Below are positions 930-60,240 of a stretch of 64,000 nucleotides of DNA, piece after piece (position 1 is the first letter of the stretch; the number at the start of each line of letters is the position of its first letter). The notes under the pieces are model-generated. The model did not search any database. It was given only the letters and a program-made list of their open reading frames with translations, and was not told where the DNA came from. Made by a program: the position numbers and the translations under genes. The stretch spans positions 33,414-97,413 of the forward strand of contig JAGOBM010000002.1 in assembly GCA_017983435.1 (NCBI GenBank), given 5' to 3'. Source of the DNA: Candidatus Moraniibacteriota bacterium (GTDB lineage Bacteria; Patescibacteriota; Minisyncoccia; Moranbacterales; UBA1568).

Positions 930-1011
930 CTTCAGGGTACAAAAGGAATTTTCCTGCTGCCCCAGGACTTCCGAGGCGATAGCAAGGGAAAAGTTCTTTT
1001 GTACCCTGAAG
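930..1011 (+). ncRNA. Conserved stem-loop element, copy 1 of 3 (candidate structured RNA with a conserved roughly 35-nt loop CCUGCUGCCCCAGGACUUCCGAGGCGAUAGCAAGGGAAAA)
   Basis: A perfect 16-bp outer stem, CTTCAGGGTACAAAAG / CTTTTGTACCCTGAAG, encloses a loop nearly identical to those at 23424-23510 and 54783-54866. It lies between xseB and korA. Confidence 0.45.
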
Positions 1012-3210: not shown

Positions 3211-3630
3211 ACAAGCTCCAAATAAATCCAAATGATTCAAATTCAAAAAACAAAAATATACGATTTGGAGGAACGGACATTAGAGTATGGGAAGAGAATT
3301 ATTCATTTAAGCAGGAGTCTTCCAAAGGATGTAGCTAACGATACTATTAGCGGGCAGCTCATGCGTTCAGGGACTTCATTAGGCGCTAATTATAGAGAAG
3401 CTAATGAAACAGTAACCAAAAAAGATTTTTCTTTTCGGATGCGTATTTGTCGTAAAGAAGCAAAGGAAACGGTGTATTGGCTGCAGTTGGTGGTAGAAGC
3501 AAATCCAGATCTGGACAAGAGGGTTTCTCCGTTACTTCAAGAAACGAGGGAGTTGGTAAAAATATTCGCAGCCATTATTGAAAAATCTAAATAATTTGAT
3601 ATTTGAATTTGTAATTTATTTGGAGCTTGT
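3211..3630. mobile_element. AT-rich cassette bounded by a perfect 17-bp inverted repeat (ACAAGCTCCAAATAAAT at 3211-3227; ATTTATTTGGAGCTTGT at 3614-3630) and carrying a four-helix-bundle gene
   Basis: The inverted repeat was read directly from the sequence, and the arms extend further with imperfect matches. GC falls sharply relative to the flanking korA and korB. Confidence 0.6.
3232..3594 (+). CDS. Four-helix-bundle protein (TIGR02436, the family of 23S rRNA intervening-sequence proteins)
   Basis: YDLEERTLEYGKRIIHLSRSLPKD...SGQLMRSGTSLGANYREANE...KDFSFRMRICRKEAKETVYWLQLV matches the family signature. Confidence 0.8.
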   Translation: MIQIQKTKIYDLEERTLEYGKRIIHLSRSLPKDVANDTISGQLMRSGTSLGANYREANETVTKKDFSFRMRICRKEAKETVYWLQLVVEANPDLDKRVSPLLQETRELVKIFAAIIEKSK

Positions 3631-18286: not shown

Positions 18287-18676
18287 TAGTGGAGTTGATG
18301 GGAATTGCACCCATGTCCAGTCACGTTTTTCCAAAATATTCTACAAGCGTAGTCTGCTTTAGGTCCCTTCCTCTCTATGAAACAGACGAAAGAGAGCGGA
18401 AGACTGGTCTTCTGCAAAAGGCGATCGGAGGAGAAAGACGAGAAGAAAATCTCCGGACCTTCCCGAAGTATGACACCGGCGGTTCTCTATCGGGAGTCGA
18501 GGAGCCGATGGTCCGCGCGAATTAGGCGCGGGCGAAAGCGAAAGACGGAGCGAACGCCGAAGCGAACGTGGCCTTGGCCTTTGGGATGAAGTTTGCACTT
18601 ATCGGTTGATGGAAGTTTTTACGATCGTACCATCATGATCGGCTTGCCTATTTTGAAAGTACGCCCTGTCGAGTCT
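18287..18676 (-). ncRNA. ssrA: tmRNA (transfer-messenger RNA, SsrA)
   Basis: The minus-strand 5-prime end GGGGUUGUUUAGACUCGACAGGG and 3-prime end GGACAUGGGUGCAAUUCCCAUCAACUCCA(CUA) closely parallel E. coli GGGGCUGAUUCUGGAUUCGACGGG...GGACGCGGGUUCAACUCCCGCCAGCUCCACCA. The acceptor stem GGGGUUG/CAACUCC keeps the G3:U wobble. A resume-codon context UAAGU-GCA-AAC and an Ala-rich tag frame ending in UAA lie on plus 18522-18596. The gene is directly downstream of smpB. Confidence 0.8.
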
Positions 18677-18772
18677 AAACAACCCCATACCATCAAGGAT
18701 GATGGAAATTCCAAATTCCAAAGCCCAAATTCCCAGCGGAATTGTAGAGTTTGGATCTTAGAATCTGAAGAA

Positions 18773-19222
18773 CTACCGGTGATCCCTCATCGCTCGCTCG
18801 ATACGCCGCTTCGCTTCCCGTTCACCGATATCGGAACGCTTGTCATACTCCTTTTTTCCCTTTGCTAGAGCGAATTCGAGCTTCACAAGTTGTTTCTGAG
18901 TATACAATCGAATAGGGACCAATGTCAAGCCTTGGACGCGGGATTTTCCAATCAGGGAGCGGATTTCCGAGCGATGGAGGAGGAGCTTGCGCGAACGGGT
19001 ATCCTCATGCTTCGTGTCTTTGTGAGCGTGAGCGTAGCGCGGAATCAGGGCATTGGTCAGGAAGAGCTCATTGCCACGGGCCGTCACAAAGGCTCCTTTG
19101 AGGCTGACGTGGCCGGTTTTGACTGACTTCACCTCGCTGCCGGACAGGACGATGCCCGCCACATACCGATCGAGGAGGGCGTAATCATAGGAAGCTCTGC
19201 GATTGAAAGCGAGATCCTTCAT
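18773..19222 (-). CDS. smpB: SsrA-binding protein SmpB
   Basis: NRRASYDYALLDRYVAGIVLSGSEVKS...GLTLVPIRLY match the SmpB consensus. Confidence 0.9.
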   Translation of the reverse strand: MKDLAFNRRASYDYALLDRYVAGIVLSGSEVKSVKTGHVSLKGAFVTARGNELFLTNALIPRYAHAHKDTKHEDTRSRKLLLHRSEIRSLIGKSRVQGLTLVPIRLYTQKQLVKLEFALAKGKKEYDKRSDIGEREAKRRIERAMRDHR

Positions 19223-23359: not shown

Positions 23360-23423
23360 TTTTTGCCCACCCCAGTCTCCGAAAGCCGATTTCTTATGTG
23401 GCTGATACCCCGCCGCATGCTCG

Positions 23424-23510
23424 TCTCACTGGTCGCGAAAGAGATTTCTCCTGATACCCGAGACTTCCGAGGCGATAGTGAGGGAAAATCTGCTTTTGTG
23501 GCCAGTGAGA
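23424..23510 (+). ncRNA. Conserved stem-loop element, copy 2 of 3
   Basis: An 18-bp outer stem, TCTCACTGGTCGCGAAAG / CTTTTGTGGCCAGTGAGA, has three positions paired only as G-U/U-G. The loop is UGAUACCCGAGACUUCCGAGGCGAUAGUGAGGGAAAA. Confidence 0.45.
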
Positions 23511-23595
23511 CACTGAGGAGAAAAAGTCTTTGCAGCCCAAGAAATGAAATGCGAAGTAATCAAGATACTTTAGTAAAACTTAAAACAAAAAAAAA

Positions 23596-38838: not shown

Positions 38839-40107
38839 ATGAAATACCAGAAAACAACCCTCAACAACGGACTGCGCATCATCTTGGCGCCGATGCAGGA
38901 AGCGGAAACAGTGACGGTAATGGTGATGACCGGTGTTGGCTCACGCTACGAGTCGAAGAAGGAAAACGGTATCGCGCACTTCCTCGAGCACATGATGTTT
39001 AAGGGGACGGAGAAGCGGCCGACCGCGCACGATATCTCGAAGGAACTCGACGGGATCGGAGCGGAGTACAATGCTTTCACCGGTAAGGAATATACCGGTT
39101 ACTATGCCAAGGTAGCGGCGACGCACGCCGAGACCGCGCTCGATGTGGTGAGCGATATCTTCATGAATGCCAAGCTCGAGCAGGCGGAAATCAACCGGGA
39201 GCGGGGGACTATTCTCCAGGAGCTCAACATGTATGAGGACATGCCGATGCGGCATATCAATGACCTCTGGGAGATGCATCTTTACGGGGATCATCCGCTC
39301 GGCTGGGAGATCGTCGGGACCAAGGAGAATATCGGATCTTTCAAACGGGCTGATTTCGTGAAATATCTGCGGCGCGGATACGTATCGGAAAACGTCGTGG
39401 TCGGTATCGCGGGCAACTTCGATTCGAAGAAGATGAAAAAGGAAATCGAGGCGCGCTTCGGTCATATCGGCCATGGCAAGAAGCCGGTGTCGAAGAAAGC
39501 CAATGACAAACAGTCGGCGCCCGGGCTCTTCATCCAGACCAAGAAGACCGATCAGACACATATGATACTCGGCGTGCGTGCCTATGATATGTGGAACCAG
39601 GACCGTTTCGCGCTGTCGGTGCTCGCGACGCTCCTCGGCGGCGGTATGTCGAGCCGACTCTTCATCCAGGTGCGGGAACGCCGCGGACTAGCGTACAGCG
39701 TGCATACGGGAGTCGATACCTATATCGATGCCGGTTATCTCGCGACCCAGGTCGGCGTGGAGCACAAGAATCTCGAAGAGACCATCCGGGTGATCCTCGA
39801 TGAATACAAGAAGATCGCGACTGAAAAAGTGGACAAAGAAGAGCTTGCCAAAGCGAAAGAATATATCAAAGGCAAGATCGCTATGGGCTTCGAAGGTTCG
39901 GATGATGTGATCGAGTACCTGGTGACGCAGGAGGTCTCCCGCGGGGAGGTGGTGCTGCCGAAGGAGAAGATGAAGCAGATCGACCGGGTGACCGCCGATG
40001 ATATCCTGCGGGTGGCTCAGGATATATTCGTCAACAAGAAGCTCAACCTGACCATCATCGGTCCGCATACGAATCCGAAGAAACTTGAGAAACTCTTGAC
40101 GTTCTAA
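38839..40107 (+). CDS. M16-family zinc peptidase (insulinase-like)
   Basis: HFLEHMMFKGT is the inverted HxxEH zinc motif, and ...EY... carries the second Glu ligand. Confidence 0.85.
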   Translation: MKYQKTTLNNGLRIILAPMQEAETVTVMVMTGVGSRYESKKENGIAHFLEHMMFKGTEKRPTAHDISKELDGIGAEYNAFTGKEYTGYYAKVAATHAETALDVVSDIFMNAKLEQAEINRERGTILQELNMYEDMPMRHINDLWEMHLYGDHPLGWEIVGTKENIGSFKRADFVKYLRRGYVSENVVVGIAGNFDSKKMKKEIEARFGHIGHGKKPVSKKANDKQSAPGLFIQTKKTDQTHMILGVRAYDMWNQDRFALSVLATLLGGGMSSRLFIQVRERRGLAYSVHTGVDTYIDAGYLATQVGVEHKNLEETIRVILDEYKKIATEKVDKEELAKAKEYIKGKIAMGFEGSDDVIEYLVTQEVSRGEVVLPKEKMKQIDRVTADDILRVAQDIFVNKKLNLTIIGPHTNPKKLEKLLTF

Positions 40108-40260
40108 AGCACAGATACAAAAAACACAGAATGCCAAACAAAACACAGGAGCAAAAATATCAAAACACAGATTGCTTATCAGGAGGTTTGTGTGCTGTGT
40201 TTTAAAAAATTGTGCTTTGTTTGGTTTTTGTGTTTTGATGATTGTGATTTCAGAAAAAAT

Positions 40261-41286
40261 ATGACTATCGATGAACGGGTAGAGATCGGTACGAAATTGC
40301 TTGTCCGTGCGGCGCTCTTGGTCGGCGGCGTGTATGCGCTCTATCTCTTGCGCGATGTCGTACTTCTGGTGCTCCTGGCCGTGCTGACGGCGGCGGCACT
40401 CACGCCAGCGGTCAACAAGCTGCGGGCCAGAGGACTTTCCCGTACGGCGGCGGTGATCATCATCTACGCTGTGCTGTTCCTCGGGGGAGTCGCGCTGCTC
40501 ATGGTGTTCATTCCGGTGTTCTTCTCGGAAATCAAGGAGTTCCTCGGTAATTGGCCGAAGTACTCCGAACGTCTCGGCGTGTTCTTCTCCGGCATCGAAG
40601 CCTATATGCAGGCGCTCGGATTCGTCTTCGATAAGCAGGCATTCTTCACGGATATCGAGGGATCGATCGGCAGCTGGTTCGGCGGGCTGTTCTCGACGAC
40701 GATCAATCTCTTCCAGGGGTTCATCCACGCGATCGGCTTCTTCTTCCTCGCGCTCTACCTGTCGCTCGAGGAGAAAGGCATCGAGAAATTCTTCCTCATG
40801 CTGACGCCGGATCAGTATCATGACCACGCGCTCTCCATCGCGTCGCGCATGCAGGGCAAGGTGAGCCAGTGGCTGTTCGGCCAGGCGATACTCATGCTCA
40901 TCGCGTTTACGATCTACTATATCGGTCTCTCGATTATCGGTGTACCGTACGCGCTGGCCATCGCCTTCTTCGGCGGACTGATGGAAATCCTGCCGTACAT
41001 CGGACCGGTGCTTGCGGCCGTGCCGGCTATCCTGGTTGGCCTGCTCTATTCCCCGGGCCTCGGATTTGCCGCTCTCATCTTCTATCTCATCGCCCATCAG
41101 GTGGAAGCGCATATCGTCGCTCCGCAGGTCATGAAGCGATCGGCTGATCTCAATCCGGTCGCGCTCATCATCGCTATCCTCATCGGTATAGAGCTTGGCG
41201 GACCGCTCGGCGTCATCCTGGCTGTACCGGTGACGATGATGCTCTCGGTGTTCGTCGAAGATATTATGATCAAGCGAAACGCTTAG
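40261..41286 (+). CDS. AI-2E family transporter (UPF0118/PerM-like permease)
   Basis: It has eight TM helices, and AHQVEAHIVAPQVMKRSADLNPVALIIAILIGIELGGPLGVILAVPV is the family C-terminal block. Confidence 0.8.
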   Translation: MTIDERVEIGTKLLVRAALLVGGVYALYLLRDVVLLVLLAVLTAAALTPAVNKLRARGLSRTAAVIIIYAVLFLGGVALLMVFIPVFFSEIKEFLGNWPKYSERLGVFFSGIEAYMQALGFVFDKQAFFTDIEGSIGSWFGGLFSTTINLFQGFIHAIGFFFLALYLSLEEKGIEKFFLMLTPDQYHDHALSIASRMQGKVSQWLFGQAILMLIAFTIYYIGLSIIGVPYALAIAFFGGLMEILPYIGPVLAAVPAILVGLLYSPGLGFAALIFYLIAHQVEAHIVAPQVMKRSADLNPVALIIAILIGIELGGPLGVILAVPVTMMLSVFVEDIMIKRNA

Positions 41287-41320
41287 AATAGAATATCGAA
41301 TATTGAATAGAGAATATGGA
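41285..41320 (+). repeat. GAATA-family repeat element overlapping the rsmI start codon
   Basis: AGAATAGAATATCGAATATTGAATAGAGAATATGGA. The ATG of rsmI lies inside the motif. Confidence 0.55.
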
Positions 41321-41996
41321 ACAAGAAAGAATTGGAACCCTATATATCGTCGCGACCCCTATCGGCAATCTGGGGGATATCACGCTGCGCGCGCTCGAGA
41401 CGCTCAAAGCGGTCGACGCGGTGCTCTCCGAAGATACCCGGGTAACCGGGAAGCTCCTGATGCATTATGAAATCAAGAAATCACTCATCTCGTGTCATGA
41501 ACACACGGATGATACGAAACTCGGGCAGATCGTCGCTCGCCTGACCCGCGGAGAGTCGCTCGCTTTCGTCTCCGATGCTGGGACGCCGGGACTCTCCGAT
41601 CCGGGCAACAAGCTGGTCTCGCTCGCTCTCGCCGCTGGAATCCCGGTCGTGCCGATTCCGGGTGTGTCGGCGCTCGCCGCCATGGTGTCGGTCGCGGGCA
41701 TCGATATGCGCGAGTTCATGTTTCTCGGCTTCCCGCCGCACAAGAAGGGACGTGAGACGTTTTTCAAAAAAGTCGCTGCTACCGAGATACCGGTTGTCTA
41801 CTACGAATCGGTACACCGCGTCGTGAAGAATCTCGAGCTGCTCGAGACGCTTGCTCCCGAGTCCCGAGTCATCATCGGCCGCGAGCTGACCAAGATGTTC
41901 GAAGAAGTTCGCCGCGGCAGCGTGTCCGATATCCTCGCGCACTATCGCGAGCACGAGAGCACAGTCAAAGGGGAATTCGTCGTGATCGTGTATTAA
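41316..41996 (+). CDS. rsmI: 16S rRNA (cytidine1402-2'-O)-methyltransferase
   Basis: GTLYIVATPIGNLGDITLRALETLKAVDAVLSEDTR is the tetrapyrrole-methylase fold of RsmI. Confidence 0.85.
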   Translation: MEQERIGTLYIVATPIGNLGDITLRALETLKAVDAVLSEDTRVTGKLLMHYEIKKSLISCHEHTDDTKLGQIVARLTRGESLAFVSDAGTPGLSDPGNKLVSLALAAGIPVVPIPGVSALAAMVSVAGIDMREFMFLGFPPHKKGRETFFKKVAATEIPVVYYESVHRVVKNLELLETLAPESRVIIGRELTKMFEEVRRGSVSDILAHYREHESTVKGEFVVIVY

Positions 41997-50950: not shown

Positions 50951-51478
50951 ATGCCGGAAAAGGCAGCGAAAAATCTGGTAGCGATTCCGAATGAGCGCAT
51001 CGAAAAGCGGATTTTTTGGCTGCGCGGGGAAAAGGTGATGCTTGATGCCGATTTGGCAGAGTTGTATGATGTATTGACCGGAAACCTGAACAAAGCGGTC
51101 AAGCGTAATATCGATCGGTTCCCATCCGATTTTATGTTTCAGTTGAACAAGGCGGAATTTGATGGTTTGATGTTCCAAAATGGAATATCAAAAGGGCGAG
51201 GCGGGAAAAGAAAGCTGCCGTACGCTTTTACCGAGCAGGGTGTGGCGATGCTCTCGAGCGTATTGAAGAGCCAGCGGGCAGTAGCAGTGAATATCCAAAT
51301 TGTCCGGACATTCGTAGAGCTGCGGAAGATGCTCGCAACGCATGAAGGACTGAGGAAGAAGATCGAGGCGATGGAACGGAAGTATGACAAACAGTTCAAG
51401 GCGGTATTCGATGTGTTGCGGCAACTCTTGAAAGAAGAAACGGAGCCGAAACAGAAGATCGGATTTGCTATAAAACAG

Positions 51479-51481
<3 letters not shown>
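50951..51481 (+). CDS. ORF6N-domain (KilA-N-related) DNA-binding protein
   Basis: LRGEKVMLDADLAELYDV...NKAVKRNIDRFPSDFMFQLNKAEF...GKRKLPYAFTEQGVAMLSSVLKSQRAVAVNIQIVRTFVELRK is the characteristic ORF6N signature. Its stop codon lies inside a GAATA-family repeat. Confidence 0.75.
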
Positions 51482-52942
<1,461 letters not shown>

Positions 52943-53456: not shown

Positions 53457-53706
53457 TGGAGGGTCACATCAGTTGAGGCTTGATTTTTCCCGGGTACCGT
53501 GCTATGCTCTCGAGACAACTGAGAAAGTCCGACGCGGTTCCCGCCTCACGTTCGCTTGAGCAAGAGGATCAGGAATCGCACAGCTCCGCTCCCGAGACTT
53601 TCTTTGTTGACGGAGTTTTTTTTGTGAGAAAGATTCTTCCGGATCGCGTGAGCGTCACGGATACGCAGGGTTGTTTCATATAATTTATCAGTAAGAAGAA
53701 GACATT

Positions 53707-54740: not shown

Positions 54741-54782
54741 GCTCTTTGCTTGATACGACGCGACATGATGCGTCTCGGGATG

Positions 54783-54866
54783 CGGAAGAGATTTTTCCTG
54801 CTGCCCGAGACTTCCGAGGCGATAGCGAGGGAAAAATCTGCTTTCGCATCCCGAGAAATGACACTA
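54783..54866 (+). ncRNA. Conserved stem-loop element, copy 3 of 3
   Basis: The outer stem is TCTCGGGATGCGGAAG / CTTTCGCATCCCGAGA. The loop is UGCUGCCCGAGACUUCCGAGGCGAUAGCGAGGGAAAA. It lies between ssb and rpsR. Confidence 0.45.
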
Positions 54867-54908
54867 TTTTTTTGAAGATTAAGTAACTCGTATTGATTTG
54901 CAGTCACT

Positions 54909-59756: not shown

Positions 59757-59790
59757 GAGAAAGCCGCCCTCCGGGGCGGTCTTTTTTTTG
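59757..59790 (+). terminator. Rho-independent terminator after rplY
   Basis: GAAAGCCGCCCTCCGGGGCGGTCTTTTTTTTG has a GC stem followed by a T8 run. Confidence 0.8.
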
Positions 59791-60240
59791 TTGCACAAGG
59801 TATCGAATAGAACCACCAACCGACTCACCTCGTGCGCCGTCAAAATCCCTGCGATCCGCCAGCTGGCGGATTGACTGACGTGAAAGCATTTCATTCCGTC
59901 ATCCTGACGGAAACCATGCTGAAATGCTTTCAAGCCGCGCCCTGAGGCGAGATCGGTCTGGAGGTTCTTTACGCTTGTGCTCTGGTCTAGGAAATGATTT
60001 TGCATAACTTCCGACTTCGCTGCAACGTTGCGATACCACCCCTCGCCGACCCAGCCAGAAAGCTTTTTCTGATGCCCGAGGTGCTTTAAACCGATAGTGA
60101 GGAAAAAATTTGCTGGCTGGATCGGTGAGGGTCATGATTCTATGGATTTATAGCCTCTGGTTCGGGAAACTGTCGGGAAATAGTATACAGAAAATAGTGT
60201 CGGCGCGTCTCTGGAAAAAGATTCTGCTTGGCACCAAATC

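Follow-up and report, generated by a model that had tools for sequence, protein, structure and literature searches.

The window, by which we mean the whole 64-kb stretch of DNA analysed here, contains three intergenic stem-loops (copies 1-3), each placed between two + strand genes: copy 1 between xseB and the alpha gene of a 2-oxoacid:ferredoxin oxidoreductase, copy 2 between argS and a histidine phosphatase gene, and copy 3 between ssb and rpsR. All three were recovered where the original prediction had put them, and each folds into a single long hairpin with a z-score of -5 to -6 against dinucleotide shuffles; the three G.U/U.G pairs described for the outer helix of copy 2 are present. The window contains the 17-mer GACTTCCGAGGCGATAG at exactly three positions (966, 23462 and 54809), always on the + strand, compared with a mean of 0.4 matches in shuffled windows, none of 100 of which reached three.

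Inventory of the repeats and other features of the window

A covariance model was built from 24 copies, which were aligned using MAFFT. With this model the window holds five complete copies, distributed over both strands, in place of the three originally counted. This corresponds to roughly one copy per 13 kb. Three probable half-copy remnants are present as well, and the family makes up close to 1% of the window. The individual parts are as follows.

489-590, - strand: complete element with a type B apex (GAUGC-AC-UACGCU-UCCG-AGCGUA-CA-GCGAG); cmsearch 61.9 bits, E 2.6e-13; fold -53.3 kcal/mol.
598-617, + strand: 3' arm remnant CTGTTTCGCATCTGGGGAAC of a type A copy; a full element stands at the same spot in L035/L039 (alignment).
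924-1023 (hairpin 929-1012), + strand: complete element with a type A apex carrying a 1-nt insertion (copy 1); cmsearch 78.4 bits.
23375-23412, + strand: probable 5' half remnant GTCTCCGAAAGCCGATTTCTT...CTGATACCC, from sequence reading and alignment with the ortholog L017 of a metagenome-assembled genome (MAG); the weakest of all parts.
23420-23520 (hairpin 23423-23511), + strand: complete type A element (copy 2), downstream of argS; cmsearch 91.5 bits.
53636-53654, + strand: 3' arm remnant in the atpC-rpsF spacer; a complete hairpin stands at this place in L047 (42 bits).
54767-54868 (hairpin 54773-54856), + strand: complete type A element (copy 3), between ssb and rpsR; cmsearch 105.8 bits.
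60037-60140, + strand: complete element with a type C apex (GAUGC-CC-GAGGU-GCUUUAA-ACCGA-UA-GUGAG); cmsearch 40.8 bits, E 1e-7; fold -48.6 kcal/mol.

The copy at 489-590 is located between xseA and xseB, antisense to both, and has orthologous copies in L035-L042 and L052. The copy at 60037-60140 lies between rplY and an amidase gene, and the remnant at 23375-23412 sits just upstream of copy 2, in which the 3-bp helix (see below) has an A-U in place of a G-C pair. A further GC-rich hairpin at 41526-41613 (-) reached 25 bits with the repeat model, but was rejected as a false positive, as every conserved apex motif is missing; it is contained in a + strand ORF (41316-41996) that we take for rsmI from its N-terminus.

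Searching the whole window against Rfam 15 at the gathering threshold returned only a one-piece tmRNA (18287-18686, - strand, 110.8 bits). ARAGORN, run on the 64 kb, reported no tRNA and no tmRNA, the 18287-18686 gene included. The adjacent ORF at 18773-19222 (-) is presumably smpB, given its position and N-terminal sequence. Positions 40106-40246, inside a long - strand ORF (39691-41112) that is a weak, below-cut-off match to RE_TdeIII, hold a palindrome of about 140 nt that is rich in CAAAACACA/TGTGTTTTG and belongs to another, unrelated repeat family; similar copies were found in the atpA-atpG spacer of L044-L046/L050 and, in L032/L048, between atpC and rpsF. Between atpG and atpD the window carries an ORF6N-domain gene (50951-51544 region; Pfam E 8e-33) followed by a palindrome with 30-nt arms (51480-51544), and L044 and L048 have at this position a 96-97 aa ORF on the opposite strand instead. 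A hairpin-containing leader (TTGGGTCGGGCACGCGG...CCGAGTGCCCGATCGAAGGAATCAAGACGATTCTGTCGT, about 1030-1130, + strand) precedes the oxidoreductase gene and is conserved in the window, L035 and L052, and more loosely in L053; it gave only junk miRNA matches with Rfam and may be either a regulatory RNA acting in cis or the 5' end of a small ORF. At 3232-3594 (+), wedged between the alpha and beta genes of the oxidoreductase, is what we take from its sequence to be a four-helix-bundle/Avd-like gene. It is absent from this place in L035-L037, L052 and L053, and the corresponding genes in L038 and L054 match 23S_rRNA_IVP/bAvd. In the same syntenic region, L053 and L054 carry cassettes of a reverse transcriptase (RVT_1) and bAvd, which look like diversity-generating retroelements.

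Architecture of the arms and the apex

Every copy forms a rod-like hairpin, about 85-100 nt long, with the same order of layers. The outer helix is followed by a one-base irregularity and then by an A/U-rich helix (UUUUYC/GRAAAA); further in come a 2x1 internal loop (GM/A), the 3-bp helix YGC/GCR, a second internal loop of 2x2 (CC or AC facing UA or CA) and finally the apical mini-helix. Across 24-39 copies, conservation is highest at the apex and declines gradually toward the base of the hairpin. The outer stems had been described as completely different between copies while staying paired; the pairing was borne out, but the difference was not, since the arms of the 24-39 copies share a weak consensus (..TCTCCNGG..GCGAAAG / CTTTCGY..CCNGGAGA..). 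The 35-nt apical region, originally described as a loop, is itself structured and accommodates the 2x1 internal loop, the 3-bp helix, the 2x2 internal loop and a capped mini-helix of 6 bp.

Within a type the apex hardly varies, and at least three interchangeable versions exist that share the same helices and internal loops. The apical mini-helix of type A is GAGACU-UCCG-AGGCGA, with the oppositions G.A, A.G and A.G; that of type B is UACGCU-UCCG-AGCGUA, with all positions paired; and that of type C consists of 5 bp and a GCUUUAA loop. Intermediates between the types occur as well (e.g. L019_1222, L047_1689). The apical register derived from type B is backed by swaps between types (G-C/C-G 17/6, G-C/A-U/G.U 18/3/3 and C-G/U-A 21/2). 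The different apical helix that RNAalifold proposes for type A (GCCCG/CGAGGC) was rejected, being without covariation support and contradicted by types B and C.

Compensatory change in the arms, as proposed from the three initial copies, was upheld in the 24-copy alignment, where 22 of the 26 arm pairs show changes on both sides and 90.8% of cells pair, versus 78% after shuffling and 40-57% with slid partners. Arm mismatches were then counted in 46 elements in a strand-symmetric manner, by aligning one arm to the reverse complement of the other. On the + strand as defined by the apex, 94 mismatches are of the G.T type and 11 of the A.C type, with 43 transversions. Three columns contain inherited wobbles, and the bias is about 44 vs 13 when they are left out; it persists in copies antisense to genes (36 G.T-type vs 4 A.C-type). 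Because the arm mismatches are almost all G.T on the apex-defined strand, one strand is the structured one, as single-stranded RNA or DNA. The original prediction had taken the wobble pairs as a sign of RNA in particular. They do mark a single structured strand, but are compatible with RNA and single-stranded DNA alike, as G.T wobbles are tolerated in DNA hairpins and both folds are stable.

Distribution and turnover among relatives

The core 22-mer of type A, used in the genome and metagenome scans as an exact match only, so that the narrow distribution is a lower bound, was found in 12 copies among 185,579 species-representative genomes, all of them in one MAG (CAZOKB01), and at 11 further loci in metagenomes. 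CAZOKB01 is labelled 'uncultured Bdellovibrionales', yet is syntenic with the window. Application of the covariance model to the fetched loci added about a dozen more diverged copies, 7 of them in CAZOKB01 loci, bringing this MAG to at least 19 copies (12 exact-core and 7 diverged) in the loci sampled. No copy was found in the 10-20 kb available for each of L048, L049, L051, L053 and L054. Contig JAGNLQ010000011.1 (GCA_017999575.1) is 100% identical to the window over the 3.4 kb compared; its proteins are labelled 'Candidatus Moranbacteria bacterium', and XseB homologues carry the same label (CPR/Patescibacteria). In viral contigs the 17-mer was matched at 7 loci, each of them unrelated and attributable to chance; copy 3 had no BLAST match among phages and plasmids, and a literature search for the core sequence returned no paper containing it.

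All sampled copies are intergenic. Copies are placed within 5-60 nt of stop codons, and the flanking genes are unrelated to one another. Orientation with respect to the flanking genes is mixed, with about a third of copies antisense; solitary copies are sense in roughly 12 cases and antisense in 4, a bias that is not significant. Many copies occur in convergent inverted pairs, 0-40 nt apart.

Relatives at several distances were compared with the window, their nucleotide identity in efp and gyrB being 92-95% for L044-type strains, 87-89% for L048/L051, 80% for the MAG (L009) and 77-79% for L049. The spacer between ssb and rpsR, which is occupied in the window, L044-type strains and the MAG, is empty and about 31 nt long in L032-L034/L048/L049/L051. 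Copy 1 is missing from the same spacer of L052, the flanks of which are near-identical; L052 belongs to the repeat-bearing clade, because the type B copy upstream is still present. Partial loss is also seen. In the xseA-xseB spacer of sister strains, the type B copy is followed by a complete one of type A, of which the window has the 3' arm only. In the atpC-rpsF spacer, L047 has a complete element and L044 lacks the 5' arm and the apex, the missing part lying between CTGC direct repeats, as in a microhomology deletion; the window is deleted there too and retains the same 3' arm.

Whole-hairpin inversions were observed at four orthologous sites. Copy 2 (argS) has the same orientation in L029 and is inverted in the MAG locus L017, copy 3 (ssb-rpsR) is inverted in the MAG locus L009, in L044 the type C copy that follows rplY lies on the other strand, beside a type B partner, and the L008 copy is inverted relative to L020. 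As the arm mismatches travel with the apex, it is the whole hairpin that flips. An assembly artefact behind the flips was judged unlikely, given that the mismatched arm positions flip with the apex and that perfect inverted stretches are at most 26 bp. At one orthologous site the apex itself is exchanged, with type A in L008 and type C in L023 on arms that are about 80-85% identical (counted from the alignment). The unit of the family is the whole hairpin. Turnover is not rapid, and fast phase-variable inversion was rejected, since five near-identical strains (L044-L047, L050) all share one ssb-rpsR orientation.

Sites with and without a copy could be compared in four cases, three of them empty spacers and one a partner-copy indel. 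No target-site duplication was seen there, nor were defined ends or shared flanks, and the apparent gains could therefore be losses in the other lineage. Where an empty site is available, the insert exceeds the hairpin by 20-55 nt, and no two sites share this additional sequence. When 150-nt flanks were compared all against all by BLAST, only partner copies and orthologous loci were recovered, with no sign of a shared mobile unit extending beyond the hairpin. Insertion of new copies into the apex of old ones was considered and dropped, as apex half-motifs in the flanks (4 and 1 vs 1.4 and 0.4 expected) are not significantly enriched, and so was copying of the arms from the target flank, as the arms do not match the empty-site sequence. 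At ssb-rpsR, the non-hairpin flanks of the insert (window 54741-54772 vs L009) are about 90-95% identical, as counted from alignments, and the surrounding genes about 75-87%, and the insert is missing from the relatives with 87-89% identity, which suggests its local transfer or recombination, or repeated loss.

Class of the family, alternative explanations and proposed mechanism

Consistent with the original prediction, no Rfam family was matched by any apex version, and E-value scans of A, B and C copies gave only sub-threshold miRNA-precursor hits (at most 28 bits vs cut-offs of 50-100). The properties of a stem-loop-containing dispersed repeat are all present, namely many intergenic copies, a common hairpin fold, and presence/absence and rearrangement polymorphism. 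The operational definition of stem-loop repeat families given by Cozzuto et al. 2008 (repeated intergenic sequences with a common predicted stem-loop) fits these elements; that survey covers 40 cultured genomes and contains nothing from CPR bacteria and nothing with this sequence (PMC2267715).

REP/REPIN elements are short extragenic non-coding palindromes in inverted doublets, which form hairpins in single-stranded DNA or mRNA, undergo compensatory changes, cluster through insertion beside each other and depend on a trans factor, the RAYT (Y1/HUH) transposase (PMC3116915). The Moranbacteria repeats likewise fold as hairpins, form doublets and show compensatory change. Membership in this class was rejected on the distribution of conservation, since a REPIN has invariant ends and a variable spacer and the Moranbacteria repeats show the reverse, with an invariant apex and arms decaying outward. 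Inspection of the aligned copies by eye showed no GTAG/CGTC-type REP tag, and neither the window nor the sequence next to the sampled copies yielded a RAYT gene. Correia elements (Neisseria) and ERIC/IRU elements (enterobacteria) are similar in being intergenic imperfect palindromes of 100-150 bp that have a conserved core, are co-transcribed with their neighbours and differ in presence or absence between strains; ERIC elements in addition show orientation effects. The conserved inverted repeats at the termini, the TA duplication and the IHF site of Correia elements were not seen in the Moranbacteria repeats, and both Correia and ERIC elements differ from them in host phylum and have no sequence similarity to them. 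We know of no described counterpart of the interchangeable apex versions in Correia/ERIC elements, and to our knowledge such repeats have not been described before in this phylum.

Other classes were compared and set aside. A MITE does not fit, with the termini least conserved and no target-site duplication at the four comparable sites. For integron attC sites, no R''/R' boxes (RYYYAAC / GTTRRRY) were recognised by eye at the stem bases, and it is the centre and not the base that is conserved; unlike an attC cassette array, copies 1-3 are 20-30 kb apart and lie between housekeeping genes. Intrinsic terminators were rejected on the basis that no T run abuts the hairpins and a terminator scan gave no match at the elements. 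A canonical intrinsic terminator (GCCGCCCTCCGGGGCGGTC followed by T8, 59763-59790, + strand) directly follows rplY, and the hairpins are thus not the standard terminators of the organism. Riboswitches or gene-specific leaders are contradicted by unrelated neighbour genes, both orientations and close relatives without an element at the same genes. A hammerhead or other small self-cleaving ribozyme was rejected because CUGAUG is present in only some copies, others having CUGCUG or CCGCCG, and because the fold is a two-way rod with no three-way junction; none of the Rfam ribozyme models scores on the copies. K-turn, loop E, T-loop, SRP domain IV and hairpin ribozyme motifs were compared by eye only, and none fits the conserved positions.

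As the main alternative, the elements might be host-beneficial cis RNAs, that is, mRNA-processing or mRNA-stabilising hairpins located downstream of stop codons and within operons, whose apex is recognised by a dedicated RNA-binding protein or RNase and whose spread is secondary. Such a role would account for a G.U bias typical of RNA helices (wobbles make up 7-8% of arm pairs), for wobble positions that recur in many copies, for the internal loops and UCCG cap conserved across apex types, for the conserved non-canonical positions of the apex, for the closeness to stop codons, and for the sense orientation of all three initially reported copies and of most solitary ones. We nevertheless regard it as unlikely: about a third of copies are antisense, orthologs flip with the G.U bias following the apex strand and not the gene strand, spacers are empty in close relatives that encode an identical S18 or a 95% identical XseB, half-copy remnants are tolerated, the neighbouring genes have nothing in common, and no U tract follows the hairpins. 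Independence of gene orientation would be expected if the apex were instead a DNA-level site, bound as duplex or cruciform by a chromosomal protein (nucleoid organisation, recombination or DNA uptake) with the arms aiding extrusion, and the intergenic location, the frequent inverted pairs and the stable folds of single-stranded DNA would agree with this. A duplex site, however, predicts no strand bias, yet G.T vs A.C mismatches number 94 vs 11; furthermore, every occurrence of the core 17-mer in the window is within a hairpin, and the three apex versions are alike in structure and not in sequence, which makes a site of this kind improbable.

The combination of a constant apex with variable paired arms also recalls trans-acting small RNA or guide-like RNA genes, in which the apex would be a protein handle and the arms would confer specificity. 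TIGR-Tas systems, which occur in CPR bacteria and phages, have stem-loop arrays with variable palindromic stems, and share with the present elements variable yet palindromic stems, conserved short motifs near the loop and parasitic/CPR hosts (PMC12045711). TIGR units, however, are in tandem beside a Tas gene and have variable dual spacers in loops with conserved motifs of 2-3 nt (PMC12045711), whereas the Moranbacteria copies are dispersed, single or in inverted pairs, with a constant loop, homologous and diverging arms in place of unrelated spacers, and no promoter-like site upstream. No Tas/Nop-domain gene was present among the window ORFs scanned with Pfam. Assignment as a TIGR array was rejected, and guide-like RNA genes in general appear highly improbable.

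On balance, we consider the elements to be a previously undescribed family of palindromic repeats of about 100 nt, intergenic and belonging to one clade of Candidatus Moranbacteria, which behaves like selfish or mobile, or at least dispensable, DNA of the REP/REPIN, ERIC or Correia kind. The initial reading as a dedicated structured RNA and not a simple dispersed repeat was not supported, as the family is dispersed, occurs in either orientation, and is present or absent, inverted, half-deleted or apex-swapped between close relatives. Stem sequence shared among additional copies had been named in advance as evidence for a simple repeat, and this applies in part: the arms are homologous, but diverged.

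The active form of such a repeat would be the single-stranded hairpin of the + strand, as RNA or single-stranded DNA. Its apex may serve as the handle for a trans-acting factor encoded elsewhere in the genome, with the arms needing only to pair. Gene conversion between copies would keep the centre uniform and let the edges diverge, and this would explain both the conservation gradient and the apex swap at one orthologous site. Recombination or template switching between arms may underlie inversions and half-deletions alike, and some of the apparent compensatory change as well. Within operon transcripts, the imperfect duplex of 35-40 bp is probably cut or bound by double-strand-specific RNases. 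By analogy with Correia (CREE/NEMIS) hairpins, described as bound or cut by RNase III (PMC2649163), operon-internal copies are probably RNase III substrates. Any effect on mRNA processing or stability is probably a by-product and not the reason for the existence of the element.

Several observations run against the mobile-repeat interpretation, among them the absence of target-site duplication, defined ends and shared flanks and the constant ssb-rpsR orientation in near-identical strains. No mobilising enzyme was found in the window or beside the sampled copies; as to partner genes, no transposase, reverse transcriptase or Nop-domain protein was found among 20 unassigned window ORFs (Pfam) or on inspection of the ORFs beside the MAG copies. 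The non-canonical positions of type A (G.A, A.G, A.G) are strongly conserved, as if a specific fold were under selection in addition to any homogenisation. The mild sense lean of solitary copies (12 vs 4, not significant) would fit an RNA role. Another conceivable route is spread via an RNA intermediate, in which the + strand hairpin would be recognised by its apex and copied into DNA by a reverse transcriptase of the lineage or, in a variant, the apex would be the handle of an RNA-binding machinery with the hairpins as dispersed substrates. G.U pairs cost nothing in RNA, relatives carry syntenic cassettes of reverse transcriptase and Avd, and the window has a solitary Avd-like gene; we consider it a long shot. 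If spread via RNA were true, the family would be a retro-repeat of the SINE type, with interchangeable modules at its apex, in a CPR bacterium.

For a repeat family of the selfish or mobile kind, the interchangeable apex versions and the wobble bias following the apex through inversions are unusual features, and the latter offers a clean case for RNA vs single-stranded DNA selection. Whole-hairpin flips, half-deletions and apex swaps are convenient strain-level markers. Complete genomes and metatranscriptomes would make testable both an apex-recognising factor and the role of operon-internal copies (e.g. ssb-rpsR) as RNase III sites. CPR/Patescibacteria genomes are about 1 Mb in size and are usually described as streamlined, and a repeat family turning over between strains at 92-95% identity points to active intergenic dynamics in such a genome.
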